A stretch of 64,000 nucleotides of DNA from Patescibacteria group bacterium (GCA_041671645.1 JBAZBD010000001.1:799234-863233), one strand, 5' to 3'. Counted from the first letter of the stretch, positions 1,788 to 48,213 are shown. Program-made: numbers and translations. Notes: generated by a model from the sequence alone, not told the origin.

Positions 1788-1788
1788 A

Positions 1789-1816: not shown

Positions 1817-1822
1817 TTAGAA

Positions 1823-3607: not shown

Positions 3608-3686
3608 TTAGTACACCTCCAAAAAGAGATTTTCGTTGTCAAAGGACAACAATTAGTCTTATCTTAGAACAATAACTGGCTGATAG

Positions 3687-3714
3687 CAAACACCTCACAT
3701 ATGTGAGGTGTTTG
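3687..3714. terminator. Palindromic hairpin, probable bidirectional terminator (family member 1)
   Basis: CAAACACCTCACATATGTGAGGTGTTTG is a perfect inverted repeat with A/T-tract flanks, immediately downstream of the stop at 3721. Confidence 0.6.
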
Positions 3715-3720
3715 GTTGCT

Positions 3721-6664: not shown

Positions 6665-6666
6665 AA

Positions 6667-17300: not shown

Positions 17301-20300
17301 TGCTCGAACCCCAGGTCGCATAAGCTTGCCAGACAGCTGAATCGCCGAGTGTGCTGTTGGCTTGAACATATTTCGTCGTAGCGCCGTAGACTACTTTGAT
17401 GGCATAAGTCGTATTGGATGGATTGGAGTTTTGGGCAATCAGGACTGGAATAGTAGTCGAAGTGACTGTACCAAAAGTTGGAGTGCCAGGTACATTAGCC
17501 AAAGTATACTTGGCAGCAGTAGAGCTAAATGCTGTTTCGGTATTGTCACCATTTCTAGCTTTGACTTTGTAGGTGTATTGAACATTTGGACTCAAGGAAA
17601 CATTGTCAAATCCAGAAGCACCACCCCAGGCGGCATAGTTTTGCCAGTCTTCAGAAGCTTGATTGGTGCCGTCTGCATGTTTGACATAATTCCAAGTACT
17701 TCCGCCATCAGCTGAGACAGCGATAGCATAAGTAGTAGAAGAGTTGTCAGTAAGTTTGATATTGATGACGCTAGCAGATGAAGCAGCTAGGGTTGGAGCG
17801 TCAGGGGCGGCGGCAAGGGTGTATTTGGGCGCAGCATATGCTGGAGCAGAATCGCCAATTGCATTGGTGGCGATCACCTTGGCACAATATTGAGTATTGA
17901 TTGATTTACTCGTAATAGCTTGGCTAATAGCGCCAGCGGCAGTCGTATAATCAGGAGTGCCAGAGTAACTGGCGGCCGAACAATCAGCATTGCCAGCGGC
18001 AGTATAGACCTTGAAGCCGGTCTCGTTGCTGGAAGCGTCAGTCCAAGTCACTGTAAATCCAGTGGTAGTCAGCGTCCCAATGGCAACTGTGTTTGGCTCC
18101 GTTGGGGCAACGTCGACTGTGGTCTGAGCAGTTCCGCTAGATAGAGCGGTCTCAACATTGTCTCCGTTCTTGGCTTTAACTTTATAGGTATATTCTGTGT
18201 TGGCGGTGAGGCCAGTATTGGTAACTCCAGAAGCGCCACCCCAGGTAGTATAATCTTGCCAGACAGCAGAAGTATCTGAAGAACCGTCCGCCTGGACATA
18301 TTTGCTCAGAGTATCATTGTAAACGGCATAATTGGTGCCGGCTGGGTTGGAATTCTGGTTAATTTTGACGGTTAGAGAGCTCGAGGAAGTGGCGTCTACT
18401 GTCGGAGCAGAAGGTACATTAGCCAAAGTATACTTGGCAGCAGTAGAGCTAAATGCTGTTTCGGTATTGTCACCATTTCTAGCTTTGACTTTGTAGGTGT
18501 ATTGAACATTTGGACTCAAGGAAACATTGTCAAATCCAGAAGCACCACCCCAGGCGGCATAGTTTTGCCAGTCTTCAGAAGCTTGATTGGTGCCGTCTGC
18601 ATGTTTGACATAATTCCAAGTACTTCCGCCATCAGCTGAGACAGCGATAGCATAAGTAGTAGAAGAGTTGTCAGTAAGTTTGATATTGATGACGCTAGCA
18701 GATGAAGCAGCTAGGGTTGGAGCGTCAGGGGCGGCGGCAAGGGTGTATTTGGAAATCGAGTCGGTAGCTGCTGTGGTCTCTCCGTCTCCGTTTCTAGCCT
18801 GAGCGGTGTAGGAATACTGAGTATTTGGCGAAAGGCCAGTATTGGTAAGGGTATTGTTGTTGGTATTCCAAGAAGCAAAACCCGTGCCAGTTCCGGCAGA
18901 TTTAGTAATGTAGAGGCCAGATGAGCCAACGGACAAGTTGGTAAATGTGCCGGTAGCAGAGACTTGGATCGAATCAGTAGCTATCGTCCCGAAGGTGATA
19001 CCGGAAGCGGCCTCGATAGAGGAGTAGGCAGAAGCAGTAGAGGAAGCCTGGCCCAAAACTCCGTTGTAAGCACGGACGTAATTTGTATATTGAGTATTGG
19101 CTGAGAGTGAACCTTGATCATACGCCGAAGCGGATGGGCTCCCAACGTCTGAATCATCGGAGCTCTTTAGAAGTCTGTAGCTAGAGGCACCTGCGACATC
19201 AGCCCAATCCCAAGATATTTGAGAAGCGGTGTTGGCGGTGTGAGTCAAGCTTGCAGGCTGTGCCGGAGCGGAAGTAGCAGTGCCAGCAGAAGAGGCAGAA
19301 GTTTCGGTGGTGTCACCGTTTCGAGCCAGCGCTTTGACGGAATACAACGTGTTTGAGGTAAGATTTTTCAGGTAATTGACTGTGCCAGTTTCCCAATTTA
19401 CCTTGGTCTTCCAAACCTTTGATGCGCCGCAAGTGCCATCGCCCTGTAGCCATGAGTCTGGAGTTGCGTTGCAGGAAAGAGCAAACTCAGTCCCGGCTGG
19501 ATTTGAGTTGACATTGATTACCGCGGCCATATTATTTCCGCTGGCTGCGCTCCAATCGTAAGCAGTGACAGTGGGGGCATCTGGCGTATTAGCCAAAGTA
19601 TATTTCGGTGCAGCAAAGGCTGGATCAGAATCCCCGTCTGCATTGGTAGCGATCACTTTGGCGCAATATTGAGTATTGATAGTTTTGCCCGTAATGGCCT
19701 GGCTGGTAGCATCTGCGGCAGTGGTATAGTCTGGGGTGCCAGAATACGAAGCGGCGGAACAATCAGCGTTACCAGCGGCAGTGAAGACTTTGAATCCGGT
19801 CTCGTCGCTGGAATTATCAGTCCAAGTAACGGTAAATAAAGTAGAGTCAATCGAAGTGATCGCCACAGTGCTAGCCGCATTTGGCGGAGCCGAAGCGAAC
19901 CAGTTTACATTATTACCGGCGCTCGTAACGTTTGAACCTGAGTTATCGGTATAGATCGCAGTCGCGTTTGCATTTATCGAATCTTTCACTGAAGCATAAG
20001 AGATTGCTCTTGTGCTCTGAGGATCTATAGACCATGTAGAGCCATCAGAGGAAGAATTTAGAGAGATAACTCGACCAGAAGCTCCAGAAACCGTCAGCGC
20101 ACCTGCGATTGTTTGAGTTTTACTTGCCTCAAATTTCAAGGTTTTTGTTGTTGTCGCCCCAGGCTGTATTGTCACAGCGCTAAAAGTGGTATCGCCTGAA
20201 ATATCCTGGATGGAGCTATCTCCTCCATTGAAGACGACCGTGCCAGAATTGTGGGTGAAAGTACCAGCAGTGTGAGTGAAATCATTCGCAACGCTCATAG

Positions 20301-23300
20301 TGGTTGACGGAGCAGCGAAGGTACCGTCAGTTTGGATAAAACTACCCACAGTAACTGCATTTGCGCCAGAAGTGAAAGTGCCAGAGGAAACCGTTAGATT
20401 GTTCGAGGCGACAAGAGCGTCAGAAAGCGTAATTGATCCTGTCCCGCCCTGGCTCAAAACAATTTTTTTGTATGCATAGCCAGTAAAGTCACCAAGAGAA
20501 TACGGCGCTAGTCCTGTGTTTATCGTTGCAGCAACAACATTGGTTGATCCATTTATTTTGGAAACTGAATTTGCGCTGGAATTAGTAACCCAGACAAAAC
20601 CGCTTGCATCCACCGCAACACCGCAAGGAGCGCTTCCAACTGTGACTGTCGCAGCTACAGCATTTGTGGCTGTATTTATCTTGGTTACAGTATTTGTACC
20701 TAAATTTGAGACCCAAACAAAGCCGTTGGCATCAGCCGCAACGCCAAATGCATTCGTCCCCGCAGAAACAGTCGCTACAACTGTGTTTGTTGTTGGATTG
20801 ATTTTCGAAACATCACTTGTGCCATAATTCGGAACCCAGACAAAACCATTCAGATCAACTGCGACACCAGCAGGCTGTGTACCGACCGTAATAGTTGCCA
20901 CAACTGTGTCAGTCGTAGCATTGATTTTTGAAACTGTATTGCTATTAAAGTTTGCAACCCAGACAAAACCACTTGAATCGGCGGCGATTCCATAAGCACG
21001 CGCACCGACGTTCACTGTTGCTGCAATTGCATTTGTTGTCGGATTTATCTTGTACGCTACATTGTTCGTACCGCTAGCTACCCAAACAAACCCATTAGAA
21101 TCTATGGCCACGCCATAGGGATCAGAACCAATCGTAATCGAAGCATCTACGCTATTAGTGGAAGCATTAATTTTTGTTAAAGTACCGTTTGATCTGTTGG
21201 TTTGCCAAATAAACCCAGAATTATCAACAGCCACGCCAAATTCGGCCGCTCCGATTGTATGTGTAGTCACTGCGTTTGAAGATGTATCAATTTTTGTCGT
21301 CGTGGTTGCGCCAGAATTTGCAATCCACGCATAAGGAGTTGAAATCGTACCGGCCTGACCAGCCACAGTAATATTGTAAAAATCGTTGCTATTGCTAGCG
21401 ACTGTAGCAGCTGCTGTACCGTTGAAGTTTACCGTTGAAGTCCCTTTGGTGAATGTGCCACCAGTATTATTCCAGCTTCCACCAATATTTATTGTGTAAT
21501 TTCCCGCACTTAGAGTTCCCTCAGCAAGATTCAACGCTCCATCATCATTCAAATCCGCGCCGAGAGTAACCGTATCCGTGTAGCCAGTATTGATAGAGAG
21601 AGATTTGATGTGAGCAGTGAAACCGCTATCGAGAGTTGACGCCTTGGTCGAGGTGGAGTCAAAGACGACATCGCAAGCAGCATCAGGTACAGTATCAAGA
21701 GTCCAGTTCTCAGCTGTACTCCAATTGTTCCCTGTACCGCCGCCATCCCAAACACAACCAGGCAAAACGTCCCAATTGGTCACATTCACACCCTTGGTCC
21801 AGTTGGTCGGGCTTATTGGATTGGCCGCGTTATTCTTCGAATTTGAGACTGAAACATAGTCGACAGTCCACTGATTATCCATGCTCGTGCTTGGAGTGAT
21901 TTCCCATTGTGCACCAGTACCGTTGCGTTGAAGTGTTAACAAATTATCAGCGATACCGGTAGCGGTCCACTGGCCAGTCACAGTCTGATTCGTGCCTGGA
22001 TTGAAGCTGATCGTCCGAGCAGTCGAAGTCGTCATTGTAAAATTGTAAAATTCAGTCGAGCCGCCAACGACTTGGGCCAAGCTCGCAGAATTGAGCTCTA
22101 CGGTACCGTAGTTGTTGCTGAAAGTACCTCCGTCCCGAATAAAATCACCACTAACTTTCATGGTGCCGTTTGGAGCTGAAAAAGTACCAGTGTCCTGAGC
22201 AAAGTGTTTTGTCTCTACGTTGTAGCCATAAGCATTGAATGTATTCGCGAGCGTAATATTCAGCGAATGCTCGACAAGTAAAGTGTCCTGAGTCACGACT
22301 GTACCGTTAGCAGAGTTTGCAGATAATTGGTAGAACTGGTTGCTGCCGCATTTAACATAGTATGTGTTGGCAGAGTTGATATTGTTGATCCATACCGCGC
22401 CGTCGTTATTCACAAACGTACCACCGCCAGACATGTCGAAGAGGAAGTCAGTGGCAACATCATTGGCGTCAAGTGTTAGGACCTGGGCAGGCGCGTTAAA
22501 TGTACCGCCATAGAGATAAAAATTGTAACTTTTAATTGTAACGGTGGCTGTGTTGCTGTTGAAGGTGCCCGAGATAATAGTAGTAGAATAACCGTTCAAG
22601 ACCAAGGTTGAAGAATTGGAATTAAAAGTGCCGCCGTTTAAGTATAGTCCGCCTACTGTCACAGTGCCTGTACCAGCATTGAAAACAGCACCAGACTCAA
22701 CATAGAAGCTGCCCATGTCGCTAGAAGTAAATGTGGCAGTGGCATTGATTGTACCGTAAATATATGCGCCAGAAGAACCAACACTTGCACCTGGGGTATA
22801 AACTTTTGAAGCCGGGATATGAAGAGAATAACTAGTCGAGAGTACATTGGAACCATCGACACTGAACAAGATTTTTCCATTCGCGTCAGAACAATTATCA
22901 GCAGTCGCAAGAATAGTATTGGTCATCGGGCCAGAGTCTTCATAGGTGAGAGAAACCAGGTAAGAGTAAAGCGACAAGCCCGTGATGTCGCTAGAGCCGG
23001 CCGCAACAGTCACAATATTACCAGCTGAATAATTGCCATCTTCGAAGAAAATTGTAATAACTGTTCCGGCGGTAACACCGCCGGCGACGAAATCAAAAGC
23101 GCCATTCCCATCGGTTGCCATTGTCTGTTTTGCACCACCATTAACCGAGGCAGAAACATTTTGCCCAGAGCCAACATTCCCCTGCCCAATTCCCTGATAT
23201 GCAGTACCCGAGATATGACTGCCGAGCCAGTTGGTATTATTACTACCAGATGCAGTTGAGTTGGTCGGTGCGATTGGTCGAGAATTTAGATTGTTTGAAT

Positions 23301-26300
23301 CAGAATAAGTAACACGATCGACTGTCCAAGGCGACATCCCACTGGTGTTCGCATTTATCTTCCATTGGCCCGAGCCTGCAGTGCCGTTGAGCTTCATGAC
23401 AATGTTATTCCCAGCCGCGCCCTGTATTGTGAGCGCTCCAGAAATAGTCTGGGTTGAGTCTGCTGCAAAAGATAATGTCTTGCCAGCAGTGGCACAAGTA
23501 AAGCTAGAAGGAGCGTTGTCGCCAGAGATCACCGATTCTTGAGCAGTATCAAATGTCACGACATAAGGCGAGAAAGTGCCGCCAGCCGTCGTAGTCAGAT
23601 TGCGTCCGATTGTAATATCGCTACCTGAGAAATAAGCGCCTGAGCTGATAGCCGCATCGCGCCCAACAACAACTGCATAAGACGGCGATAAATAGCCGTT
23701 CGTCACAGAAAAGTCATTCGATACCGTAAAGCCAGCACTATAACCTACTGTCCCATCACCAGTGTTTGCGTAAATATAATTATAGATAGGCGGAACGTTT
23801 GTAAACGTATATGGATTGTAACTGCTATTAGCAGGAATTGAGCCAATTTTGAAAGTACCATTGGCGTTATTGAAAGTACCGCCAGAGATATTCCAAGTAT
23901 AATCACTATAATATCCGTTTGAGTCAGTTGTAATAGTCAATGTGCCCGAAGTAGATGTAAATGTACCACCGCTCATCGCAAATGATGCGTTTAGCATAGT
24001 AATCGTAGCAGTGTCACCATTAAATGTAGCACCGGTGCTAACCGTAATTTGATAATTTGATAAGGTCAAATTTGAAGTGTTAGCATTGAAAGTACCGCCA
24101 GAGAAAGTAGGAGTAGCCAAGATGTGAGTACCGCTACCAGCATTGAACTCGCCGCCAGCCTGATAAAATGAGCTGGAAAGAGTGAGGTTATTGGCTTCCA
24201 TCTCAACAATGCCATCGTTATACATACCATAGGCGTTTACATTGCCGCCAGGAGTAAACATCGTATACTGAGTGACATAAAGATCATACATAGTACTGAG
24301 AGTCGAACCAGAGACCGAGAAATCAGAGAAACAGCCGCAGTCATCAGCAATCGCTAAATCTGCGTTTGTAATAGCCCCTGCGGTATAGTCACTGTAAAGA
24401 GTGGTCTTGTATCGATACATATTGAGACCAGTTTTGTCTATGGCGGATTCAGGCAAATAGACGATACTGCCGGAATTGTAGCTCGGATCATTATCAATAA
24501 AGATGGTGACTGGTTTGCCAGCAACAAGCTCGACCCCGCTAAAGGAAAAAGTACCACCGGAGCCAGTGACGCCCGACATCTTTCCGCCACCGTTTGAGGT
24601 AATGGAAATCGGGATATCAGCGCCCAAAACGCTGCCGCCGATACCATCGTAAATTGTGCCGGAAATCGTATTGCCGCCAGAATATGTAACTGTTAATTTT
24701 GGATCGAGTGCCGTACCATCATTTTCTGCAAAGTAGCCATAGAAGTAGACACTATCATAATCGGCATTTATGGTTGGCTGACTATCTGCAGCATCAGCAG
24801 TGATTCTAAGACCAAGCTTCGTAACACCAGATGTACTAATAGCTGCTAGACCGCTTGCATTCATCGCGAAATCGTTGTATCCCATATCGTTGTAACTGGC
24901 GTACGGAATCGCAGATGCAAATGCAGTTGTTCCGAAAGTGTCGTAATCCGATGCTTGAAGCGAAGTGTTGCTAGAAGGGTTCGAGGAATACAGACCCAAA
25001 CTCGAATTCCAACCCGAAGGGTCACCCATCTTGTATGCGCCATATACGGAAAAATTGGCAGCTGAGATAGTCGCGGTGTTTGGGATGCTAGAAGTATCAA
25101 AGAGAAACGCACTTCTTGAGACGTAAGCCCAAGCAGCGTTGTTGCCAGCGGCGATTGCGGCCATATCACCGCTTGTTCCGTCATCAGCAGCGCTATATCC
25201 GCCAGACCTTATGGAAGCCCAGTCCCAATTGCTCCTACTGCTGTAAGTGTACCCATCAACAGACGTGACTTCAGTATGAGTATTTGGATAATAAATAACA
25301 TCAGTATCAATCTTCATGTCAGACTTTGGCGCTGTCTCTTGCCAGACAAAGCTTGAATCCAAGCTGCCTTCGATCTTTTTGGCTTCGACTGCGACAACCT
25401 TGTCTTGGCCAGTCTCATCTTTGACGACTTCACCAGTTGAGGCATTTACATCAAAAGCTTCTGGCTTGTCTCTGAATTTGAGATCGTCTTTGACGACGAC
25501 AGTCTTGTTTTCTTTGGTCTCTGGGTCGGTGACGACAACACTTCCTTCTTTCCCGCCATCAGTCTTGGTCACATTCCACTGGAAATTCTTCGGCGCGTCT
25601 TCGCCCTTGATTGTCTTCCAGAGACGTACACCATACTCAGAGATGTCAAATTCAAATTTGAGGTTACCGTCATCGGTTGTGACCTGGCTATCCTCAGCCA
25701 AAATCTGTGGTGCAATCCATTTGGAAAGCGCGTTTCTGGTATCTTCGGCCATCTTCTGGTCAGGAGTGTTGATATCGGCCCAAGCCACTTTGCTGTCAGT
25801 TCCCTTTGATTTTGATAAAACTGGATTGCCATCGACGTCTTTCAGGGTCACCGTATATTTGTCGCCAGTTTGTCGAGACTCGATTTCATAGCCAATCTTG
25901 TCTTTGAAAACTTTGACAGTAGAGGGCATCTGGTCAAAAAGCACATATTCGGGCGTATCGATGGAATGATTTGGGTTGATATCCTTCCAGCTTGAGTCAG
26001 CCTTGGCATAATCTTCTTTGTAGTGGACAAGGCCGGTATAGGACTCTAGAGTCTTGGTGCCGTTCTTGTTGTCGATTGTCTTGGTAGTCTCTGTGCGATC
26101 AGCGACAATCTCATTTGGATTGGCCAAAATCTGGTCAGTGCCGTTGTTTGAAATAGTAGTATTCTTCTGGCCCTCTTCTTTGGCGATGACAAATGAATAT
26201 TCCTGGCTCCATGGCGACCAAGCGCCAACAGAGTCCTGATAGCGAACGCGAGAGTAGTAGGTTCCTTCGGTGAGTAGAGTTGTTAGCTTGATATTTGTCA

Positions 26301-27273
26301 GTTCGTCTTTGGGCTCTGTCTTTGTCTGATCGAAGATCGGAGAAGCATAATCGCCAGATTTGGTCGAAATCTGCCACTCTGAAGCGTTTTGCGTGTCATT
26401 GTCGATATCAAGATAAGAGCTAGCGCTTAGGGTCTGAGTATTTCTAAACAAGCTTTTGTCAGCAGTGAACGAGAGACCGGTTGGTGTATTTGGAAGTCTA
26501 GAGTAGAGCAAGGTCAAAGAGTGCAAAACAGGCGAAAGACTAGCGTCGCCAGTCGAAAGGGTCAAGCGTATGTAGAGAGTCTCGGAATCGGCCATCTCAA
26601 GGACATCGCTCGAAAACAAAATGTTGTCAGTAGAAAATTCCTTTTTGACAGCACCGCCGTTGAGTACTTCGCTGGCCTCGATCGAAAGCCAATCGACAAA
26701 CTCACCCTTGGCCGGGGTGTAGGCCAAAATCGCGTTGCCAGATTCCTGGTACTGATTTTGTGTAATATCTGAGTCTAACTTCGCACTTTGGGAAAGAGAG
26801 AGAGAATTGGGGTTATCGGCTGTCGAAAGTCCAGAAATAGTCCAACTCTGCCAAGCTTCCTGTGTGCCCCAAGCCACTTGTGAAGAGGCGAAAGTGCGAA
26901 TGACGCTGGTAGCAAAAACGGAGGTGAAGATAAGGGCCACGATGCCAGACATGTAGCCGGAGAGTGAAACCCAGTGAATTGCAGAAGCAAACGGGCTCAT
27001 GTGCCACTTGTAGTACCATCTGAATTTCATCCGAAGATTGTTGTGGAGGGTGGCGAAGACTGGAAAAGTAACCTTGGTCGAACGCTGGATCAAAATGATT
27101 TCACGTTCAAGCTGAGCTTCCTTCTTTTGGAGCTCTTTTTGCTTCTCCGCGACAATCACCTCTTCTTTGGTGAGACCTTCAATCGCTGCCTTGTCCTGAG
27201 GCAACAAAGTGTACTTCTCCAAAGGTGCTTTTTTGGAAAAATGACTGCGGAAAAATTTGCGTAGGCCCTTCAA
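7390..27273 (-). CDS. Giant membrane-anchored surface protein (6,627 aa), putative adhesin or attachment fibre
   Basis: Uninterrupted 19,884-nt ORF with AGGAGG 4 nt upstream of a TTG start. N-terminal K/E-rich segment plus a TM (IHWVSLSGYMSGIVALIFTSVFA). Modules recognised by pattern: FN3 arrays, 7 YVTN repeats, a DUF285/BspA LRR block, InlB-B-repeat-like modules, two G/T/N-rich beta-helix-like blocks, and C-terminal TMs with CarboxypepD_reg-like sandwiches. Confidence 0.9.
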   Translation of the reverse strand: MKGLRKFFRSHFSKKAPLEKYTLLPQDKAAIEGLTKEEVIVAEKQKELQKKEAQLEREIILIQRSTKVTFPVFATLHNNLRMKFRWYYKWHMSPFASAIHWVSLSGYMSGIVALIFTSVFATSVIRTFASSQVAWGTQEAWQSWTISGLSTADNPNSLSLSQSAKLDSDITQNQYQESGNAILAYTPAKGEFVDWLSIEASEVLNGGAVKKEFSTDNILFSSDVLEMADSETLYIRLTLSTGDASLSPVLHSLTLLYSRLPNTPTGLSFTADKSLFRNTQTLSASSYLDIDNDTQNASEWQISTKSGDYASPIFDQTKTEPKDELTNIKLTTLLTEGTYYSRVRYQDSVGAWSPWSQEYSFVIAKEEGQKNTTISNNGTDQILANPNEIVADRTETTKTIDNKNGTKTLESYTGLVHYKEDYAKADSSWKDINPNHSIDTPEYVLFDQMPSTVKVFKDKIGYEIESRQTGDKYTVTLKDVDGNPVLSKSKGTDSKVAWADINTPDQKMAEDTRNALSKWIAPQILAEDSQVTTDDGNLKFEFDISEYGVRLWKTIKGEDAPKNFQWNVTKTDGGKEGSVVVTDPETKENKTVVVKDDLKFRDKPEAFDVNASTGEVVKDETGQDKVVAVEAKKIEGSLDSSFVWQETAPKSDMKIDTDVIYYPNTHTEVTSVDGYTYSSRSNWDWASIRSGGYSAADDGTSGDMAAIAAGNNAAWAYVSRSAFLFDTSSIPNTATISAANFSVYGAYKMGDPSGWNSSLGLYSSNPSSNTSLQASDYDTFGTTAFASAIPYASYNDMGYNDFAMNASGLAAISTSGVTKLGLRITADAADSQPTINADYDSVYFYGYFAENDGTALDPKLTVTYSGGNTISGTIYDGIGGSVLGADIPISITSNGGGKMSGVTGSGGTFSFSGVELVAGKPVTIFIDNDPSYNSGSIVYLPESAIDKTGLNMYRYKTTLYSDYTAGAITNADLAIADDCGCFSDFSVSGSTLSTMYDLYVTQYTMFTPGGNVNAYGMYNDGIVEMEANNLTLSSSFYQAGGEFNAGSGTHILATPTFSGGTFNANTSNLTLSNYQITVSTGATFNGDTATITMLNASFAMSGGTFTSTSGTLTITTDSNGYYSDYTWNISGGTFNNANGTFKIGSIPANSSYNPYTFTNVPPIYNYIYANTGDGTVGYSAGFTVSNDFSVTNGYLSPSYAVVVGRDAAISSGAYFSGSDITIGRNLTTTAGGTFSPYVVTFDTAQESVISGDNAPSSFTCATAGKTLSFAADSTQTISGALTIQGAAGNNIVMKLNGTAGSGQWKINANTSGMSPWTVDRVTYSDSNNLNSRPIAPTNSTASGSNNTNWLGSHISGTAYQGIGQGNVGSGQNVSASVNGGAKQTMATDGNGAFDFVAGGVTAGTVITIFFEDGNYSAGNIVTVAAGSSDITGLSLYSYLVSLTYEDSGPMTNTILATADNCSDANGKILFSVDGSNVLSTSYSLHIPASKVYTPGASVGSSGAYIYGTINATATFTSSDMGSFYVESGAVFNAGTGTVTVGGLYLNGGTFNSNSSTLVLNGYSTTIISGTFNSNTATVTIKSYNFYLYGGTFNAPAQVLTLDANDVATDFLFDMSGGGTFVNNDGAVWINNINSANTYYVKCGSNQFYQLSANSANGTVVTQDTLLVEHSLNITLANTFNAYGYNVETKHFAQDTGTFSAPNGTMKVSGDFIRDGGTFSNNYGTVELNSASLAQVVGGSTEFYNFTMTTSTARTISFNPGTNQTVTGQWTATGIADNLLTLQRNGTGAQWEITPSTSMDNQWTVDYVSVSNSKNNAANPISPTNWTKGVNVTNWDVLPGCVWDGGGTGNNWSTAENWTLDTVPDAACDVVFDSTSTKASTLDSGFTAHIKSLSINTGYTDTVTLGADLNDDGALNLAEGTLSAGNYTINIGGSWNNTGGTFTKGTSTVNFNGTAAATVASNSNDFYNITVAGQAGTISTPYAWIANSGATTTTKIDTSSNAVTTHTIGAAEFGVAVDNSGFIWQTNRSNGTLTKINASTNSVDASITIGSDPYGVAIDSNGFVWVASGTNNVAYKINPTTNAIAATVNVGARAYGIAADSSGFVWVANFNSNTVSKINATTDTVVATITVGTQPAGVAVDLNGFVWVPNYGTSDVSKINPTTNTVVATVSAGTNAFGVAADANGFVWVSNLGTNTVTKINTATNAVAATVTVGSAPCGVAVDASGFVWVTNSSANSVSKINGSTNVVAATINTGLAPYSLGDFTGYAYKKIVLSQGGTGSITLSDALVASNNLTVSSGTFTSGANAVTVGSFIQTDGTFAAPSTTMSVANDFTHTAGTFTHNSGTVVFNGGDSSIQDISGDTTFSAVTIQPGATTTKTLKFEASKTQTIAGALTVSGASGRVISLNSSSDGSTWSIDPQSTRAISYASVKDSINANATAIYTDNSGSNVTSAGNNVNWFASAPPNAASTVAITSIDSTLFTVTWTDNSSDETGFKVFTAAGNADCSAASYSGTPDYTTAADATSQAITGKTINTQYCAKVIATNADGDSDPAFAAPKYTLANTPDAPTVTAYDWSAASGNNMAAVINVNSNPAGTEFALSCNATPDSWLQGDGTCGASKVWKTKVNWETGTVNYLKNLTSNTLYSVKALARNGDTTETSASSAGTATSAPAQPASLTHTANTASQISWDWADVAGASSYRLLKSSDDSDVGSPSASAYDQGSLSANTQYTNYVRAYNGVLGQASSTASAYSSIEAASGITFGTIATDSIQVSATGTFTNLSVGSSGLYITKSAGTGTGFASWNTNNNTLTNTGLSPNTQYSYTAQARNGDGETTAATDSISKYTLAAAPDAPTLAASSASVINIKLTDNSSTTYAIAVSADGGSTWNYVKHADGTNQASEDWQNYAAWGGASGFDNVSLSPNVQYTYKVKARNGDNTETAFSSTAAKYTLANVPSAPTVDATSSSSLTVKINQNSNPAGTNYAVYNDTLSKYVQADGSSDTSAVWQDYTTWGGASGVTNTGLTANTEYTYKVKAKNGDNVETALSSGTAQTTVDVAPTEPNTVAIGTLTTTGFTVTWTDASSNETGFKVYTAAGNADCSAASYSGTPDYTTAAGAISQAITSKSINTQYCAKVIATNAIGDSAPAYAAPKYTLAAAPDAPTLAASSASVINIKLTDNSSTTYAIAVSADGGSTWNYVKHADGTNQASEDWQNYAAWGGASGFDNVSLSPNVQYTYKVKARNGDNTETAFSSTAAKYTLANVPGTPTFGTVTSTTIPVLIAQNSNPSNTTYAIKVVYGATTKYVQANSTLGDSAVWQAYATWGSSKTVTGLTANTLYTFSVAATNGDSVATAYSATADQSTLAVYTLTYNSGANGSVIGSSPQTVDHGSSGSEVVATPAANYHFVKWSDNDSTNPVRTDTNVTANITTTASFAIDTHTLAYSAGANGSIVGTTPQTIDHGASGSEVTATPAANYHFVSWSDDVMTAARTDSNVAGDIAVTASFAIDTHTLTYSAGANGSIVGTTPQTVDHGSSGSEVTATPAANYHFVSWSDDVMTAARTDLNVADNISVTATFAINTYTLTYNAGSNGSVVGTSPQTVDYGANGSQVTATPAAGYYFVDWSDANTTAARTDTNVTVDITVTANFALQFLSRWDTSKTSSGSSTATQIHLPLESTGTYNFIVDWGDSSTSTITTWNQAETTHTYASGGIYDLKIGGTITGFRFNNAGDKLKLSQISQFGPLRLGNSDGYFSGTKNLKITATDVLNTTGTTTMKNSFRDSGIDTVPSMNSWDMSAVTDMYCMFESSSLFNQDISSWNTGAVTSMYAMFYNAFVFNQNIGSWNTTNVINMAYMFESAWAFNQNISSWNTGSVTTMREMFWNNSAFNQNISNWNTGAVTNMNQMFYSAAAFNQNLASWNVVNVTDMTNMFSSSALSNANYSNILIGWSAQAVKSNVTLGAATKKYTLGAAADGRAHLVSAHTWTITDGGPSAFVLTYSAGSGGSIVGITPQTVDYGANGSEVTATPAANYHFTSWSDGVLTAARTETNVITDKSVTASFAIDTHTLTYSAGANGSVVGSTPQTVNYGANGSQVTATPAANYHFVSWSDDVMTAARTDSNVAGDIAVTASFALDAPASATGVTITPTSSTTFNVTWTDNSSIETGYKVYTADGNADCSAASYSGTPDTTTSADAVSQAIASKSVNTQYCAKVVATNSGGDSAPAYAAPKYTLANVPTFTTVAGDYSDADLWHLDTTINASANPAGTNYYIQYSTNDGAGAGNFYDPNAMAWQTETTYLFKKDKDNVDLAANTQYWMKVKAKNGDNVETIYTSTSVADVTPPAAPTALNITNICTTKATTTWTAATGADSYTVSYGTDTAATNIGTLTTATTSKQITGLSNTTTYYWKASATSTANGTGPYAAPSSFETSNCGVESPDDFAGSAASTTQINWTWSDITSEETGYKVEDSAHTSLSGNLDAGSTSYNETPLSANTGYTRHVNVYNGGGSQDSNSDTVYTLAAVPGQPTVTTLSSSRIRITVDKNGNPNANTRYAIAVSADAGSTWNYVKNADGTTQVSEDWQLYADWGGDSGFANTGLTKNTNYIYKIKARNGDNVATDFGATNNTTTLDNFSVTISSDGSGSGSLDQVTQIVDAGADVTTTATAAASSDFVSWTGCDTVATNICYLTDVSADRSITAVFTIKTYTITINEAGTGTGDLDQVTQDVNYGANLTVVATADISSTFTGWSGDATGTGDASFTNITANKTITATFTIKTYTITINTTGTGMGDLDQATQTVNYGANLTVVATPAASSTFAGWSGDATGTGDASFTNITANKTITATFTIRSYTVTISKAGNGTGDLDQSTQVVTYGANLTVAATPAVSSDFTGWSGDAAGTGSAALTNITADKTITATFTLKTYTISSSAGSNGAISPLGDNLANYGTSPEYTITPSDGYYISNVVVDGSAISGTLPSSYTFTNVTATHSISVSFAANNTCVWDGQAADDNWSSADNWTANIIPSATCDVIFDATSTKDSTLDASFTSHIKSLSVNTGYSGTISANTTLNDDGDFTLNAGTFTANAQTLNIAGSLTMTADPTAVFNEGTSTINFNPTTTGKTITTNGQVLGNLIFNGVDAVIDPNVTLLNNNISLLANHTLTAGWTFQDNVSAQSLTANAGTLVDGGKSVNIAGDIIIANKVGVLASTGVWTQSSSGNIANPDMHNTFGSLVAAGSGITSTMTAGVSVGLGSGSAGAFTVGPGTLMGIGKAVIVYSRSNDSVTVNNLTADSRLGVLAIYPQIADMTQKAITLPSNFATTFSFQQDPTGILTATGNFNFGNSNVIVAKDRTTTPAGYVDMSTHNLTCKNLTIGSTSTNEYATIPGYLKLGSGTTNIAGSLSHGNASNIGNKLDLGSGTINVGGNWDTSNITVTPGTSTVDLTGTGTLQSKGYAAAPYDFYNLKLAHNGNTTNAISSVTTSNVLYTYAGGTLNGDNRYAFRMYKSDGDAVVNTGANFTASTFLVYRPSSDVTVAGQNFGQGSVAYSGVTNDVAITLSSDVTTTRDIYAYSITTGKRTTLNAVDNNLTARNLYLAYPVYGVGTANLGSGTHEFTNGIFRYTGSTDDTNVLNLESSSVSIGGNIDFTGMTVDPGTSTITLNGIGGQTVAGSNTFNNLSATASAARTISFASDTTQTVNGALSLNGTSAGNITLSRSGGTGTDQWKIDPKGSTSTSYLSVENSKNLSSAVIDPSNSINLGNTNKWFPPTGTISFSSARTNQIDQTLTLSSSTGTQMKVSNSPDFSGSEYETFSTSKSWTLAAPTVDGMKTVYLKVKDIDGDESPTASASIILDITAPSAPTNLTALSASASVSLSWVNPTDTDFANVAIFRSTEADFTPNIGTNKIAYTTLSSTATYIDSNVTSGVTYYYKVEAIDSVDNYSAASNQASGKPDSDKPTAPGKPTVSGKTNTIDNIEYYNQPAVTLTWPAATDTNSGILNYSIKICKTSGCANANDALSLSTLTSPSNSLTLDGASALADGTYYVRVAANDNLGNQFAWSEELTFILDTVLPSSLEKVEAFDISDRVNSDYRVMLRWKASTDTGSGLLGYTIVKNGNNIISESTSGVQVDASGYASYVDTVTPNTQFNYSVFSFDLAKNQTASMAAEFQTTTVVDCSGCVILPPDEPGEGTLEISDVKATPSELMSEKAQATITWKTTVPATTQVKYGASAPYPYTTEVDTGLNSFHTVVLSDLDFNKTYHFAVISKDKYGQTAESTDFTFATKDIFKEQSVLDTVISNLSGTAMKVRDIIGQMQIVGVNNSGQPVVFGIPTSTTTPASTAAVAGIAIISAAAAPLANAATLFSLPEYIRSLIFALASLGTKKSRRKWGRVLEVGTYIPIAQAKLTLFKLTQTFPGSFSKRPVANTYSDIEGNFSFVADPGKYEIEVTKDLYEVSEAPGFYKKGQIIEVKSEQEGLIVPNILLSMNDKSIAKRFSFIEKIGVVEKVLVYVSLGFLIFGTVSILNSLAHSHRDTVTLVSALLFPLLWYVNIKSFVKVSPWGNVLDSVNHSGVSLALVRIMDGEGKRLIRTAVTNEKGKFSTVLPKGKYKLLVAKAGYKPSDATHMDAQEKLQTVSRKIEIDRDK
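12320..13420 (-). repeat. In-frame tandem array of about 72-aa (216-bp) InlB-B-repeat-like modules
   Basis: Four 72-aa units (TIKTYTITIN...GWSGDATGTGDASFTNITANKTITATF) plus one longer variant. The units starting at 12757 and 12973 share about 90 nt with one mismatch at a 216-bp offset. Confidence 0.8.
15440..15925 (-). repeat. DUF285/BspA-type leucine-rich repeat block within the giant protein
   Basis: Six consecutive repeats of about 26 aa of the form FNQNISSWNTGxVTxMxxMFxxAxx. Confidence 0.75.
17488..17828 (-). repeat. Perfect 341-bp direct repeat, copy 1 (FN3 module)
   Basis: Base-for-base identical to 18412..18752 by manual comparison. The 924-bp offset equals 308 codons. Confidence 0.9.
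18412..18752 (-). repeat. Perfect 341-bp direct repeat, copy 2 (FN3 module)
   Basis: Identical to 17488..17828. Both encode KYTLAAAPDAPTLAASSASVINIKLTDNSSTTYAIAVSADGGSTWNYVKHADGTNQASEDWQNYAAWGGASGFDNVSLSPNVQYTYKVKARNGDNTETAFSSTAAKYTLANVP. Confidence 0.9.
20485..21336 (-). repeat. Seven YVTN-type beta-propeller repeats within the giant protein
   Basis: A repeat of about 42 aa, xVxKINxxTNxVxATIxVGxxPxGVAVDxxGFVWVxN, occurs seven times. Confidence 0.75.
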
Positions 27274-27312
27274 CTTCCCTCCTGCGACAACCAGTCTTAT
27301 TATTATGAGTAT

Positions 27313-27341
27313 ATTTTAACAAGAGAAGTGAACTCGTTCAA
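27313..27341 (-). promoter_or_regulatory. Promoter of the giant gene
   Basis: The minus strand reads TTGAAC (27341..27336), 17 nt, TAAAAT (27318..27313), about 35 nt upstream of the AGGAGG/TTG start. Confidence 0.5.
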
Positions 27342-27429
27342 GGGCAAAAGAGGGTCTTGGCTGTTGATAAGATACAGAAAAATAGAACAAATTTATTTGC
27401 CTCATATTTGTCTTTGCTAGACTAGATAA

Positions 27430-28158
27430 TTAGTAAATTTTCTTTTGCAAATTTTGACGGATTTTCCACGAATCAACTATCATTTTGAGCCCATCTTTCA
27501 ATGGGTTGACAGTCGAATGTGGATCATCGTGCCAGGTGATCCCCTCCTCCTTTATTTTGTATCCTAATTTTTTGGCAATAGCTAAAACTTCAATATCGAA
27601 AGAGAAGTCAAATATGGTCAGCTTCTCGAAAATCGCTCCGGCCGCCTCTTTCGAAAATAATTTGAAACCGCACTGTGTGTCTTTGATCCCAGGCGTCACA
27701 AGGGCTTGGATCATCCAGTTCAAAGCTCGGCTGCCCGCTCTTCGAGTGAATGACTGTGGGATGGCTAATTTGCCACCTTTGCAGTATCTGGAGCCGATGA
27801 CGACATCGTATTTATCGATATGGGCAAGAAGTTTGTCGACCTGTTCGATTGGGGTAGAATTATCAGCATCGGCGAATAACACATACTGGCCCTTTGCCAA
27901 TTTGATTCCGTCCTGCACTGCACCACCCTTCCCGCGGTTCTGTTCGCCTTCGTAGATCACCAGATTCGGAATTCTGTCCACAAAATGTTCGGCGGAGCCA
28001 ACCGTGTCATCAGGGGATGCATCAATTGCAACTATCGTTTCGACGATGAAGTCTTTGGTTTTAACATATTTTTCTATCGCTTCCAGAATAACGTGGATCC
28101 GTTTTTCTTCACGATATGCCGGAATCACAATTGATAAATAGATTTTCTCGTCCATCAA
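27430..28158 (-). CDS. GT2 glycosyltransferase, polyprenyl/dolichyl-phosphate hexose synthase-like (Dpm1/Ppm1-like)
   Basis: LSIVIPAYREEKRI..., IVAIDASPDDT, NRGKGGAV and FADADNSTP (DxD) fit the soluble GT-A fold. 242 aa. Confidence 0.8.
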   Translation of the reverse strand: MMDEKIYLSIVIPAYREEKRIHVILEAIEKYVKTKDFIVETIVAIDASPDDTVGSAEHFVDRIPNLVIYEGEQNRGKGGAVQDGIKLAKGQYVLFADADNSTPIEQVDKLLAHIDKYDVVIGSRYCKGGKLAIPQSFTRRAGSRALNWMIQALVTPGIKDTQCGFKLFSKEAAGAIFEKLTIFDFSFDIEVLAIAKKLGYKIKEEGITWHDDPHSTVNPLKDGLKMIVDSWKIRQNLQKKIY

Positions 28159-29993
28159 AGTCCTATTTTGTGATTAATATTTGGTCTGGGATAATCAAGA
28201 TATTTGATCGGATACGGAGATTTGGGCGGATGTTGCTTCAAGTCTTCCGGAGTAATGTTGTAGACCAGGATAGAGCCACCAATAATCGCCTTTGGCTTAA
28301 TATCGTCAAGCCAGTTGTACGACCATTTGCCCTCTTCTGGACCACGTAATTTTGACAATTGATAGAAAGTCGCAGAGACAGCCAACCAGCCCGTAGTGGG
28401 TCCGTAGCTAGAATGCCAGTCTGTACGACTTGGCAAGTAATAGGTGGGGACTGAACCGAAATAATCCACCTTAATATTCGTGATATTATTGTCGCCTACG
28501 TATTTCTTGAGTCGGAGAAAGTCCTGGCCCCAATCAAGTGAAGAGTCAACTAGCCTGGTGTAGCGCTTGTCTTTGGGGGTGAGTTCATTGAAATACGCGA
28601 TGAAATTAGGGAAATTTGAGATTGTTGAAACAGCTAAATATGCCAGAAGAATAACTAGGGCGATCTGCATCCGACCCAGTTTCCGCCAATTCCAGCTGGG
28701 ATTCACAATTGGATAAATTGCATAACCGATCATCAATAATACGAAGGGAATCGTTGGCATGAGATGACGAATACCAATGTTCAGCGAACCCTGCAATGTG
28801 ATAGCCCAGTAAATAACCCATGGCACGATTAGGAGCGAGAGCATCCATTTGATTTCTTTTTGCTTTGGCCAATTACGAATTATCGAATAAACAGAAAAGA
28901 AAAACATAGCTATGATTGGTAAGGGAGTTTTGAGCAACCAAGCGACCGGGAAATACCAGGGGATTGATTTGTCAGAAAGATGACCCCAAATAAAGGTTGC
29001 ATTGCCACCGCCAACACGGCCGATAACTAGGAATATTCCCAGGATATAGTGGCCAAGTGCTCGCAAGTACGGATTATTTTCAAATAAGTGGAGAAAGTTT
29101 CTAAGGGGCAAAGTCCTCGCATCGGACGTCATATTTGTGTCTATCAATTGATGCTCGATAGCAGGCGGAGTCTTCCAAACCAAAGGTAGGTAAACCAACC
29201 AGACGACCACCAATGAGATCAGACTGACATATACTAGAGGCATGAAATTTGCAACAAAATTATGCCGGAAGCCTTTCTCCTTTCTATCCAAAACGGCCCG
29301 AACTACCACGAGAATGAAGAAAATCGGGAACAGCAAAACCCCAGAAAACTTTAGGAGTTCAGCTATCCCGAGCGCAACTCCGGCAAGCAAAATGCTCGAC
29401 AAAGTTTTCTTAGTGACCGCCTTGTCAAAGGCATACGTCGCCAAGACAAAACCAAATGCCGCCGCTACGTCGGTAGTGACTAGCCGGCCGTGAGCGATGA
29501 CGTCAGGGTAAAGCGCATATAGGAAAAGGATGACTACGCCGACTTTCCAGCCGAAGAGCTCAATCGCCCACTTGAAGAGCAACAGGCCCAGCCCAATCAT
29601 GAGCAGCATCATCGGAAGTCTGGCAAGAGAGAATACTTCGGCAGGATCGTTGCCTTGACGATAAATCATGCTCCAGCCCGATTCCCATTGGTTTATGTCT
29701 TTGAAGCTTGAATCGTCCTCTGGACCCTTGATCTTACTATTCATGACGAGAGGAACACCGGCCAGAACTTTCGCCAGAGGCGGATGCTCTGGATTCAATC
29801 GATAATCTTGATCTTTTAAGTAGGTATAGCCAGCGGGAATATGTGCGATTTCATCGACAATAGCAGAATCACCCGGCGTGTTTCCGATCCCTCGGGAGGA
29901 AAATAGGGCGAGCAAGAACATAAACAGGAGAATCCCCGCAGGCACGAAATATTTATATTGTATTTTACTGCAGATCCTCTTTAGCAATTTCAT
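28155..29993 (-). CDS. GT39/PMT-family (ArnT-like) polyprenyl-phosphate-sugar-dependent glycosyltransferase
   Basis: 612 aa with more than 10 TMs. The first loop carries the DE motif (IVDEIAHIPAGY) and NPEHPPLAKVL, typical of PMT/GT39. It overlaps the downstream GT2 start by 4 nt. Confidence 0.75.
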   Translation of the reverse strand: MKLLKRICSKIQYKYFVPAGILLFMFLLALFSSRGIGNTPGDSAIVDEIAHIPAGYTYLKDQDYRLNPEHPPLAKVLAGVPLVMNSKIKGPEDDSSFKDINQWESGWSMIYRQGNDPAEVFSLARLPMMLLMIGLGLLLFKWAIELFGWKVGVVILFLYALYPDVIAHGRLVTTDVAAAFGFVLATYAFDKAVTKKTLSSILLAGVALGIAELLKFSGVLLFPIFFILVVVRAVLDRKEKGFRHNFVANFMPLVYVSLISLVVVWLVYLPLVWKTPPAIEHQLIDTNMTSDARTLPLRNFLHLFENNPYLRALGHYILGIFLVIGRVGGGNATFIWGHLSDKSIPWYFPVAWLLKTPLPIIAMFFFSVYSIIRNWPKQKEIKWMLSLLIVPWVIYWAITLQGSLNIGIRHLMPTIPFVLLMIGYAIYPIVNPSWNWRKLGRMQIALVILLAYLAVSTISNFPNFIAYFNELTPKDKRYTRLVDSSLDWGQDFLRLKKYVGDNNITNIKVDYFGSVPTYYLPSRTDWHSSYGPTTGWLAVSATFYQLSKLRGPEEGKWSYNWLDDIKPKAIIGGSILVYNITPEDLKQHPPKSPYPIKYLDYPRPNINHKIGL

Positions 29994-31500
29994 TTTGTCC
30001 CTCCAAAATATTTGACCTCTTTGTTGATTTCGTAGTCACTCTGAAAACTTCAAGATATTTACCAAACATCAGCCGAGTCTGTGATTCCATAGCTGGGATG
30101 GAAGAAAAGAAAATGTTGGAAATCGGCATTACAAATGGGGTCAGGCACCAGTCGAGTAGAATTCGACCAAATGGTTTCCTGCCTTGTCTCTTCGGCATCA
30201 GAAGGGTAGAAATCACAAGTGTGACAATCATACCGAGCCATGCGATAGTCAGCATTTTGATATACACTCCGCGAAAGCTATATGCCAAAATGTCTCCCTG
30301 AAAGGCAGAGCCGAAAAAAACCGGAATCCAGGCTGAAGTGATCAGGACCAACGATGTCGTCGACCAGGAGATATGTGATTCCCATAATATCAAAGCGTTC
30401 GCCCACCTGTCAAAAAACGGTATTTTGTGGTTTCCTATCGTATTTTCCATCACAAAAGGGATGTCTGACACACCCCAAGCCCAACGTTTTTTCTGCAAAT
30501 ACTGCTCACGCATAGTATTCCTGAAAGTGTCAGCCAAGACTGCGTCCTGATAGATTGGAGTATACATCGGTACCACTTCGTGACAGCCGTCAAACCGATA
30601 ATAAGTTCGCCAAAACTGATGGCCGTCTTCCACAATCGTCTTGGTCGACCAGAAATCTGTTTGGACTAGTGCGGCTAGACTCTGTGCATGGGCAGAGAAA
30701 TTACGAAGCCGAGAAGGTCTTGTCGTAACAATTAATTGCCAAAAAGACGAACCCATCGCCATCAACCGATTCATCATCGGCACGTCCCAAATATTGTTGA
30801 AAAACATAGGCAACGGCTGAAAACTTTTGTGGATGGGATCGGGATCAGTGACATATTTATAAGTCAGATCGAGGAGATAATTTTTGTCCATGATATGGTC
30901 CGAATCCATCGTTGTCACGACCACATTTTCGTAAGGAATTTTCTCTTTGTCGATTTGTTCGAGTACCTTTCTGGCCGCGTAGGTGATGTTCCCACCTTTA
31001 CCGATCACTTCACCGGGAATATCCTTGGGATGCATTACGGTCATGAAAAGATGAAACTTCTTGCCGTGCTTTTCGGTTAATATTTTGGAATACTCCCCTG
31101 CCCGTTCTTTGTCGCGCTCCTCCGTCCCCAAGACATAAATAACATGATCCTGCGGGTAATTCGAAGTGAGAACGGAACGAATAGATGATTCTAGAATTTC
31201 AATATCTTCCTTGTATGTCGGAACAATCACAAGATGATATATCTCCTTCCATTTGCCGTCCGTCTGGTCTAATTTTGCTTGCCAATCAGTTTTCATGTCA
31301 CGTCGATAATTTCGATAACCCAGGATTAACCGATAAGACATCACAAATGTTCTTATCAACCAGTAAGTTAGATAAAAAATCATGTAAATAGCAAATACTT
31401 TTGGCGAGACTAGGACAACGACGAAAGGCAAAAGCAATATTGACCAAGAAATCAAACCGGGGAGTACTTCAAACAATCTTTTGTATTTCCAGGTGTTCAT
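29965..31500 (-). CDS. Membrane GT2 of the processive beta-glycan synthase type (cellulose/chitin-synthase-like)
   Basis: N-terminal TMs, VIVPTYKED, TMDSDH (DxD-like) and QKKRWAWG (QxxRW), followed by C-terminal TMs. 511 aa. Confidence 0.75.
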   Translation of the reverse strand: MNTWKYKRLFEVLPGLISWSILLLPFVVVLVSPKVFAIYMIFYLTYWLIRTFVMSYRLILGYRNYRRDMKTDWQAKLDQTDGKWKEIYHLVIVPTYKEDIEILESSIRSVLTSNYPQDHVIYVLGTEERDKERAGEYSKILTEKHGKKFHLFMTVMHPKDIPGEVIGKGGNITYAARKVLEQIDKEKIPYENVVVTTMDSDHIMDKNYLLDLTYKYVTDPDPIHKSFQPLPMFFNNIWDVPMMNRLMAMGSSFWQLIVTTRPSRLRNFSAHAQSLAALVQTDFWSTKTIVEDGHQFWRTYYRFDGCHEVVPMYTPIYQDAVLADTFRNTMREQYLQKKRWAWGVSDIPFVMENTIGNHKIPFFDRWANALILWESHISWSTTSLVLITSAWIPVFFGSAFQGDILAYSFRGVYIKMLTIAWLGMIVTLVISTLLMPKRQGRKPFGRILLDWCLTPFVMPISNIFFSSIPAMESQTRLMFGKYLEVFRVTTKSTKRSNILEGQNEIAKEDLQ

Positions 31501-31829
31501 TGGTGAGATAGATAATAAATTTCCAAAATCATTACAAGTGCTACTGCCAAGATATTGCCGATGAAGAGGAGATAGCCAATTTCGCGTTCTCTTTTGAAGG
31601 AAGAAAAGGCCAAAACAGTGTTGAGAATCAGAATGATGAAAAGCAGTTTGATTGGGTAAACACCGATTCTGATATAGACAAAAATGTCTGGAGAGCTAAG
31701 CAAGAAATGCCAGATAAGATAATCTACAAACGACCAGATTAGGGAAATAGAAAACAAATACCGATTCACGATATCGTCAACCAGAAATTCCTTCAGGAAC
31801 GGACCAAGGGTGGTTATATATTTTTTCAT
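31497..31829 (-). CDS. Small polytopic membrane protein (110 aa), first gene of the glycosylation operon
   Basis: I chose the start at MKKYITTLGPF (ATG 31829) because the longer track ORF (31853) would overlap tRNA-Thr. It overlaps the next gene by 4 nt (ATGA). Confidence 0.55.
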   Translation of the reverse strand: MKKYITTLGPFLKEFLVDDIVNRYLFSISLIWSFVDYLIWHFLLSSPDIFVYIRIGVYPIKLLFIILILNTVLAFSSFKREREIGYLLFIGNILAVALVMILEIYYLSHQ

Positions 31830-31842
31830 ATTTTTTGTATTT

Positions 31843-31918
31843 TGGAGCCGCATTCGAGATTCGAACTCGAGACCTCCACTTTACGAAAGTGTTGCTCTAC
31901 CAGCTGAGCTAAAGCGGC
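31843..31918 (-). tRNA. tRNA-Thr (anticodon CGT), CCA encoded
   Basis: The reverse complement reads GCCGCTTTAGCTCAGCTGGTAGAGCA-ACACT-TTCGTAA-AGTGG...TCGAGTTCGAATCTCGA-ATGCGGC-T-CCA, with one U-U mismatch in the acceptor stem. Confidence 0.85.
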
Positions 31919-31919
31919 A

Positions 31920-31993
31920 TGGAGCGGGTAGTGGGAATCGAACCCGCGACTCATCCTTGGGAAGGATACATTTTACCACTAAACTATACCCGC
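31920..31993 (-). tRNA. tRNA-Gly (anticodon CCC), CCA encoded
   Basis: The reverse complement reads GCGGGTATAGTTTAGTGGTAAAA...TATCC-TTCCCAA-GGATG...GGGTTCGATTCCC...TACCCGC-T-CCA, with a perfect acceptor stem. It lies 1 nt from tRNA-Thr. Confidence 0.9.
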
Positions 31994-47018: not shown

Positions 47019-47020
47019 TT

Positions 47021-48196: not shown

Positions 48197-48213
48197 GTTT
48201 GCTTCCCTGACTC

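Follow-up and report, generated by a model that had tools for sequence, protein, structure and literature searches.

In a window of 64,000 nucleotides (nt) from a Patescibacteria group bacterium (GCA_041671645.1 JBAZBD010000001.1:799234-863233) we analysed a module of four genes on the minus strand, which in order encode a small membrane protein, a 511-aa synthase of the glycosyltransferase 2 family (GT2), a 612-aa transferase of the GT-C fold and a 241-aa GT2 enzyme. The closest named homologues indicate that the genome is a Berkelbacteria-like member of the candidate phyla radiation (CPR, or Patescibacteria). The reading we prefer, to which we give a probability of roughly 45%, is that the module is a core envelope-glycan unit of Berkelbacteria-like CPR, in which the synthase would make a polymer and the pair formed by the GT-C transferase and the 241-aa GT2 would decorate this polymer or another envelope glycoconjugate. 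The gene for a giant surface protein of 6627 aa that follows the module on the same strand would be a neighbour with a promoter-like site of its own, and possibly one client among several at most.

The small membrane protein (111 aa) is encoded at 31497-31832, the synthase at 29965-31500, the GT-C transferase at 28155-29993 and the 241-aa GT2 at 27430-28155. The stop of the small open reading frame (ORF) and the start of the synthase gene share 4 nt (ATGA), the synthase and GT-C genes overlap by 29 nt and the GT-C and 241-aa GT2 genes by 1 nt (TGATG); the four make up one operon with translational coupling. Sequence searches found thousands of homologues for each of the module enzymes, so that chance ORFs can be dismissed and the genes taken as real. 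The four overlapping genes and the 156-nt gap to the giant gene described in the original prediction were thus confirmed. Its span of 27430-31993 for the operon was correct for the genes but included 31843-31993, which is occupied by two tRNA genes and is not coding. These genes, identified by ARAGORN and from the sequence, are on the same strand directly upstream of the module: tRNA-Gly (CCC) at 31920-31993 and tRNA-Thr (CGT) at 31843-31918, the latter 10 nt from the start of the small ORF. Since the ATG (31853) of an alternative 118-aa version of the small ORF falls within tRNA-Thr, the most likely start is at 31832. Transcription of the module may come from the tRNA promoter.

The order small membrane protein, synthase, GT-C, small GT2 was identical in all Berkelbacteria-like loci with enough sequence (the window, L001-L013, L016, L018, L068, L081-L089, L096, L143, L144 and L145), with genes that overlapped or were separated by short gaps. 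In two loci from more distant CPR (L015 and L024) the same four genes were found together with a separate GtrA gene. Given that the order is fixed, the gene that accompanies the GT-C pair throughout this clade is that of the processive synthase and not one for a secreted protein. It is because of this constant partner that we favour an envelope-glycan module with two arms, and since the relatives keep the set mostly without an adjoining giant gene, the module can be regarded as a general cell-surface glycosylation unit.

The original prediction of a small membrane protein and a processive QxxRW GT2 was borne out by hydrophobic helices in the former and by invariant DxD, ED and QxxRW motifs in the latter. 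In the 511-aa synthase these motifs (D199xD201, E291-D292 and Q336-K-K-R339-W340) were invariant in 23 homologues, and the protein has two N-terminal helices, a GT-A domain and a C-terminal part with interface and transmembrane helices. The top 16 Foldseek matches of its AlphaFold2 model (mean confidence, pLDDT, 73.8) were hyaluronan synthases and BcsA, with E-values from 7e-7 to 7e-5 (7e-7 for hyaluronan synthases and 4.5e-6 for BcsA). The Pfam GT2 score of 21.7 bits was under the cutoff of 23.3, and the match to CelA was also weak. In the 111-aa protein two hydrophobic helices are strong and a third is weaker, and no Pfam or NCBIfam family was found for it; its orthologue stood directly upstream of the synthase gene in every Berkelbacteria-like locus with sequence there.

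The 241-aa GT2 matched Pfam PF00535 with 92 bits, contains a DAD motif and was without any hydrophobic segment or transmembrane helix in the hydropathy analysis. Its closest solved structure was the dolichyl-phosphate-mannose (Dol-P-Man) synthase of Pyrococcus furiosus (5mlz, 3e-14), followed by GtrB (sll0501) and ArnC, in agreement with the Dpm1/Ppm1-like GT2 proposed originally. The nearest NCBIfam models were AglJ, Dol-P-hexose transferase, PgfS and PpgS, all of them far below their equivalog cutoffs. Judged by sequence, the protein is a soluble member of the polyprenyl-phosphate sugar synthase group (Dpm1/GtrB/ArnC/PpgS), with likeness also to ALG5 and AglJ. For an identical protein (P0241) NCBI and JGI both give the name 'dolichyl-phosphate beta-glucosyltransferase', and mannose as the donor is therefore not established.

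For the 612-aa transferase, the GT39/PMT type (protein O-mannosyltransferase) with a loop-1 Asp-Glu that had been proposed was supported in its motif, its GT-C fold and its match to Pfam PMT_2, but not in its specificity for PMT. The scores were 36.2 bits for PMT_2 (PF13231, cutoff 26.1) and 26.2 bits for PMT (PF02366, cutoff 22.7), and only about one third of the GT-C homologues had the PF02366 match. PMT_2 is a broad family that is not known to be specific for protein acceptors. The Asp-Glu pair (D47-E48) is in the first outer loop, just after transmembrane helix 1 (residues 13-34) and at the start of a helix covering residues 46-60, and was invariant in 22 homologues; given that ArnT likewise carries a loop-1 Asp-Glu, the pair is no marker of a protein acceptor. 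The AlphaFold model (pLDDT 85.5) has a clear GT-C fold, in which a membrane core of about 11-13 transmembrane helices with a conserved N-terminal module is followed by a C-terminal alpha/beta soluble domain on the extracytoplasmic side (about residues 470-600). Foldseek matched it to Pmt4 (6e-7), ArnT (2e-5) and an oligosaccharyltransferase (3e-5). Given that Pmt4, ArnT, ALG12 and oligosaccharyltransferases are all about equally close in structure, the acceptor cannot be read from the fold. Sequence comparison with PDB chains gave no meaningful matches, either for the single protein or for a 22-sequence profile, and no solved PMT appeared at E<=10. Pfam found no MIR domain in the GT-C; to our knowledge bacterial Pmt enzymes lack MIR as well, so its absence does not exclude a bacterial-type PMT.

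The C-terminal soluble domain and the lack of MIR are as in ArnT and unlike eukaryotic PMTs, and the 241-aa GT2 also matches ArnC. These features would suit an ArnT-like modification of lipids or lipoglycan anchors, in which the GT-C passes the sugar to a glycolipid or to a scavenged host lipid. We nevertheless consider this the least probable of the explanations, given that no ArnT match was obtained in NCBIfam or in the PDB sequence search, that the 64-kb window is without genes that would supply a modified sugar, e.g. 4-amino-4-deoxy-L-arabinose (Ara4N), and that, as far as we know, CPR bacteria are without lipid A.

A link between the GT-C and the flippase GtrA was seen in relatives of the window. 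In one sister clade (L007, L008, L013, L018, P0108 and P0116) GtrA is fused to the N-terminus of the GT-C, giving a protein of about 760 aa, and L012, L145, L015 and L024 have a distinct GtrA gene between synthase and GT-C; the GT-C is thus tied to a polyprenyl-phosphate monosaccharide that is flipped. On this genomic basis, the association probably marks a polyprenyl-phosphate-sugar-dependent, extracytoplasmic glycosylation system. Candidates for a GtrA in the window itself were rejected: one at 51174-51317 was a single weak tblastn match, antisense within a YebC gene, and Pfam found no GtrA, and the small ORF of the module gave an hhalign probability of 0.1% and co-exists with GtrA in relatives.

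It is established that in lipid-carrier-dependent extracytoplasmic glycosylation a Dpm1-family GT2 supplies a GT-C transferase, and hyaluronan, cellulose and poly-N-acetylglucosamine (PNAG) synthases polymerise their product and extrude it through their own membrane channel, assisted by small partners of the IcaD/PgaD type. In the first arm of the proposed mechanism, the 511-aa GT2 and its small partner would polymerise a sugar from a nucleotide-sugar donor and extrude the chain through the channel of the synthase. In the second arm, the 241-aa GT2 would work at the cytoplasmic face and put one hexose on polyprenyl phosphate, this lipid-bound sugar would be flipped (by GtrA in the sister clades), and the GT-C would use its loop-1 Asp-Glu to pass the hexose on to an extracytoplasmic acceptor, most likely the polymer of the first arm or another envelope glycoconjugate. 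The route from the donor to the GT-C is well supported by the family membership, the predicted fold and the GtrA fusions.

Several observations weigh against the envelope-glycan reading. In other CPR classes the GT-C orthologues (33-40% identity) are mostly without a synthase within 5 kb, one being present in 3 of 61 loci, and the acceptor in those classes cannot be assigned to a neighbouring synthase; a universal acceptor, for example membrane proteins, would fit such loci better. No GtrA gene was detected in the 64-kb window by tblastn and Pfam. The synthase model is of only moderate confidence (pLDDT 73.8; TM-scores 0.35-0.45), and the polymer, the donor sugar and the acceptor are all predictions. 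Finally, a downstream giant gene recurs in several deep lineages that differ in their upstream flanks, which hints at selection for linkage.

These points bear on an alternative, in which the polyprenyl-phosphate hexose and the GT-C serve a general O-glycosylation of Ser and Thr in many anchored or secreted proteins, the giant being one client and the synthase a separate matter. GT-C relatives were found in at least 584 species genomes, nearly all labelled CPR, when species-representative genomes were scanned with a GT-C alignment, and since they often occur without the synthase this suits a universal class of acceptor. Precedents for such client-adjacent systems exist: the pgf operon belongs to the core genome but adjoins cnm in just some 15% of the strains (PMC5856776), GtrB and PgtC2 glucosylate Ser/Thr-rich regions (PMC12041528), and a GT39 of C. 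bescii (Cbes_1864) adjoins celA (PMC6151902). The recurrent adjacency of the giant, the wide occurrence of the GT-C without synthase and these precedents keep the alternative alive. It does not explain, however, why the genes are so strictly coupled in one operon with a processive synthase; most lineages have no secreted Ser/Thr-rich protein beside the module, and the giants are without linkers rich in Ser, Thr and Pro (S/T/P). We regard general protein O-glycosylation as the main alternative, possible if on the unlikely side.

The composition of the giant bears on the same question. Ser and Thr make up 25% of the window giant (22-25% in giants), as compared to 9-13% in cytoplasmic proteins, and 15-20% of the adjacent proteins, so that the earlier description of the giant and its neighbours as extremely Thr/Ser-rich was overstated. 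No 30-aa segment of the window giant exceeded 50% Ser+Thr, and no 20-aa segment with at least 70% S/T/P was found in it or in six related giants, which means that no S/T/P-rich linker was detected. The known lipid-carrier-dependent O-glycosylation systems act on linkers of this type (PMC12041528, PMC5856776, PMC6151902). Membrane-anchored proteins with true S/T/P-rich linkers, e.g. TTPTTPSTTKKTTTPSSATT and TASTVTTTDTTTTTT, are encoded at 62451-63818 and 51804-53609, both on the minus strand. Given that such linkers are known targets, these two proteins are better candidate clients than the giant, and their presence in the window is in favour of general O-glycosylation.

The ORF of the giant (7390-27273, minus strand) starts with TTG, 156 nt past the last glycosyltransferase gene. 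Its domains are fn3, NHL, ten Flg_new_2, Flg_new and DUF285, followed by C-terminal transmembrane helices. The N-terminal anchor (residues 1-126; 26896-27273, minus strand), which giants and other large surface proteins of Berkelbacteria-like genomes have in common and for which no Pfam family was found, consists of a cytoplasmic stretch with LQ(K/R)ST, the motif LRxKxRWYYxWH (RWYYKWH in the window) and a transmembrane helix at about residues 100-126. In the gap (27274-27429) there is a promoter-like TTGAAC-17-TAAAAT at 27341-27313 and an AGGAGG at 27283-27278 ahead of the TTG, and no terminator-like hairpin was found between the 241-aa GT2 gene and the giant gene. An identical TTG start (LKGLRKFFRS) is present in the sister contig L142, after a gap of 157 nt, and the 3' half of the gap, with the TTGAAC and the ribosome-binding site, is conserved there.

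The loci chosen by their enzymes and with downstream sequence were scored for a giant as the next gene on the same strand. A giant followed the module directly, after 53-157 nt, in the window, L142, L081/L082, L143 and L144, and across the lineages other than the window (L142, the L081 group, L143, L144, L109 and L115) the gap was 41-227 nt. No giant was found downstream in 13 lineages, for each of which 2.8 kb or more of sequence was available on that side (L004, L005, L006, L007, L008, L011, L012, L013, L016, L018, L083, L085 and L145), where unrelated genes were present instead. In L084 the orthologous C-terminus of the giant, together with genes for a fibronectin type III (FN3) protein and MacB, is 7 kb away on the opposite strand as an inverted block. 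L004 and L125 are apparently one contig (both records are 798,787 bp), on which the module and a giant of this type are some 350 kb apart. When metagenomes were scanned with the N-terminal anchor module, 55 loci (L087-L141) were found to carry an anchor of the giant type, and of the approximately 45 giant-type genes with usable upstream sequence, 7 had the module directly upstream (five members of the L081 group, L109 and L115). Synteny between module and giant, as a check on a functional link, was thus kept in L142, the L081 group, L143, L144, L109 and L115 and failed in most relatives.

According to the original prediction, the four genes form a dedicated O-mannosylation (Ppm1/PMT-type) and glycan-synthase module for the giant fibre. 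The common strand and the 156-nt gap with no terminator-like hairpin are in its favour, as is the adjacency kept in L142, L143, L144 and the L081 group, the giant of which is 45-51% identical to the window giant over the first approximately 900 aa. The module is, however, a fixed unit in all Berkelbacteria-like relatives examined, with 13 lineages that have no giant downstream, it precedes only 7 of about 45 giant-type genes, and in L084 the giant-FN3-MacB block is inverted and 7 kb off. A conserved promoter-like site stands within the gap, the supposed mannose enzyme is labelled a glucosyltransferase by annotation pipelines and the giant is without linker-type acceptor sequences. GT-C orthologues of other CPR classes, moreover, lie among housekeeping genes. 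A module dedicated to the giant is therefore very unlikely. In favour of the general O-glycosylation alternative are the giant genes that directly follow the module, after 41-227 nt, in the window and the lineages listed above; L115 and L144 clustered with lineages that have no downstream giant in an identity tree of the GT2, although the neighbour-joining trees of the GT-C and the 241-aa GT2 are distance trees of short proteins with no support values and only a rough guide.

In L142, where both enzymes are 87% identical to those of the window, the downstream protein (1399-4116) is homologous to the giant over residues 1-131 only and past residue 131 goes straight into beta-helix-like repeats, which suggests a replacement of the ectodomain behind a fixed anchor. 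One may extend this to a CPR-wide system in which the GT-C and the small GT2 perform protein O-glycosylation and the slot behind them serves to express and glycosylate giant adhesins with one anchor and swapped ectodomains. We find this extended version rather unlikely. If it were true, surface glycosylation would be tied to the fast-diversifying host-attachment proteins of episymbionts.

Some further features of the giant genes and of the surrounding sequence were observed. Residues 381-566 of the window giant (25576-26133, minus strand) are 77% identical to the L081 giant, as compared to 38-39% in the flanks and 63% for the GT-C; Pfam finds no domain in this segment, which from its conservation may be a functional, perhaps binding, domain. 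After the giant, at 4447-7386 (minus strand), follow genes for a 239-aa FN3 protein and a MacB-type ABC transporter (ABC_tran, MacB_PCD and FtsX). Orthologues of the FN3 protein and/or MacB adjoin giant-type genes in L084, L113, L114, L117, L125, L127 and L132, and the linkage of the giant to FN3/MacB looks more regular than its linkage to the glycosylation module. In L099 (274-9617) a giant with the same N-terminal motif is located behind two apparent glycosyltransferase genes, judged as such from their N-terminal sequences, and two polytopic membrane proteins of 620-706 aa, possibly GT-C-like, are also encoded ahead of it; this may be a different set of glycosylation genes beside a giant gene. 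In Parcubacteria-type genomes (L019-L080; e.g. L050 8368-9975 and L072 7399-8220) a second GT-C-like gene of about 535 aa precedes the GT-C orthologue on the same strand (35 loci), and FtsQ-like (31 loci) and seryl-tRNA synthetase-like genes flank the orthologue, so that it lies in a conserved housekeeping neighbourhood. In the window, two GT4 glycosyltransferases, a sucrose-6-phosphate-phosphatase-like hydrolase and a galactose-1-phosphate uridylyltransferase-like gene are found at 45894-50279 (minus strand), and this cluster may belong to a pathway for sugars or compatible solutes and supply nucleotide sugars.

The components of the module and the logic of their combination are already known, and the genes carry generic pipeline labels. 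What is new is that, in an unstudied phylum, a synthase is coupled in a fixed manner to three partners (a novel small membrane protein, a soluble Dpm1-like GT2 and a GT-C that has no close characterised relatives), and that this module recurs, though not universally, ahead of variable giant surface-protein genes. We know of no experimental work on envelope glycans or protein glycosylation in CPR/Patescibacteria. A full-text literature search returned no paper on this gene set and nothing specific on glycosylation in CPR or Berkelbacteria, and a study of Saccharibacteria pili called glycosylation in that group 'unexplored' (PMC11623550). Given that the module is conserved across Berkelbacteria and that GT-C orthologues are found in hundreds of CPR species, it is a good entry point to the coats of ultra-small episymbionts. 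A recurrent link to the giant that is functional would connect glycosylation with host attachment. Even without one, the module predicts that organisms thought to be biosynthetically minimal secrete a polysaccharide with a decoration derived from a lipid carrier.

The first arm of the module can be compared to class I hyaluronan synthase, IcaA/IcaD, PgaC/PgaD and BcsA. Like these, the 511-aa GT2 has the D, D, ED and QxxRW residues, two N-terminal helices and several C-terminal helices, and as with IcaD and PgaD a small membrane protein is translationally coupled to the synthase. The gene of this small protein stands upstream, however, and in sequence the protein has no relation to IcaD or PgaD. 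The module also differs from the synthase systems in that it is without a PilZ or cyclic di-GMP module and without a BcsB, PgaA or PgaB partner, and in that its synthase scores below the Pfam GT2 family cutoff.

The known protein O-glycosylation systems considered were actinobacterial Ppm1/Pmt, Pgf of S. mutans, streptococcal GtrB/PgtC2 and Cbes_1864 of C. bescii. The module shares with them the expected two-step chemistry, the loop-1 Asp-Glu and a GT-C whose best Foldseek match is Pmt4, and as with pgf/cnm and Cbes_1864/celA a core glycosylation operon has the gene for a large surface protein adjacent in some lineages only. In contrast to the known clients, which carry disordered stretches rich in Ser and Thr (and Pro), the giants here have none. 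The module has no epimerase and no second GT-C, unlike Pgf, and the known O-glycosylation systems include no synthase.

The second arm resembles the Gtr-type systems, for which GtrA/GtrB/GtrC of enterobacterial phages, CsbB/GtcA/YfhO of lipoteichoic acid, GacI/GacJ/GacL and mycobacterial PpgS/Rv3632/Rv3779 were compared. It differs from them in that there is no GtrA in the window and that the module GT2 is without the two C-terminal transmembrane helices of GtrB, CsbB and ArnC. For the module GT-C no similarity in sequence to YfhO, ArnT or any GT-C of solved structure could be detected, and the operon that contains the pair also encodes the novel small membrane protein and the processive synthase. 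Common to both are a Dpm1/GtrB-family GT2 paired with a GT-C transferase in tightly linked genes, and a GtrA that is fused or adjacent in the sister clades of the module; PpgS, like the module GT2, is soluble and about 240 aa long. Pairs of a GtrB-type enzyme and a GT-C are also found inside the glycopolymer clusters that they decorate, for example CsbB/GtcA/YfhO (PMC5836110, PMC7389260; reviewed in PMC8035078; see also PMC11127046).

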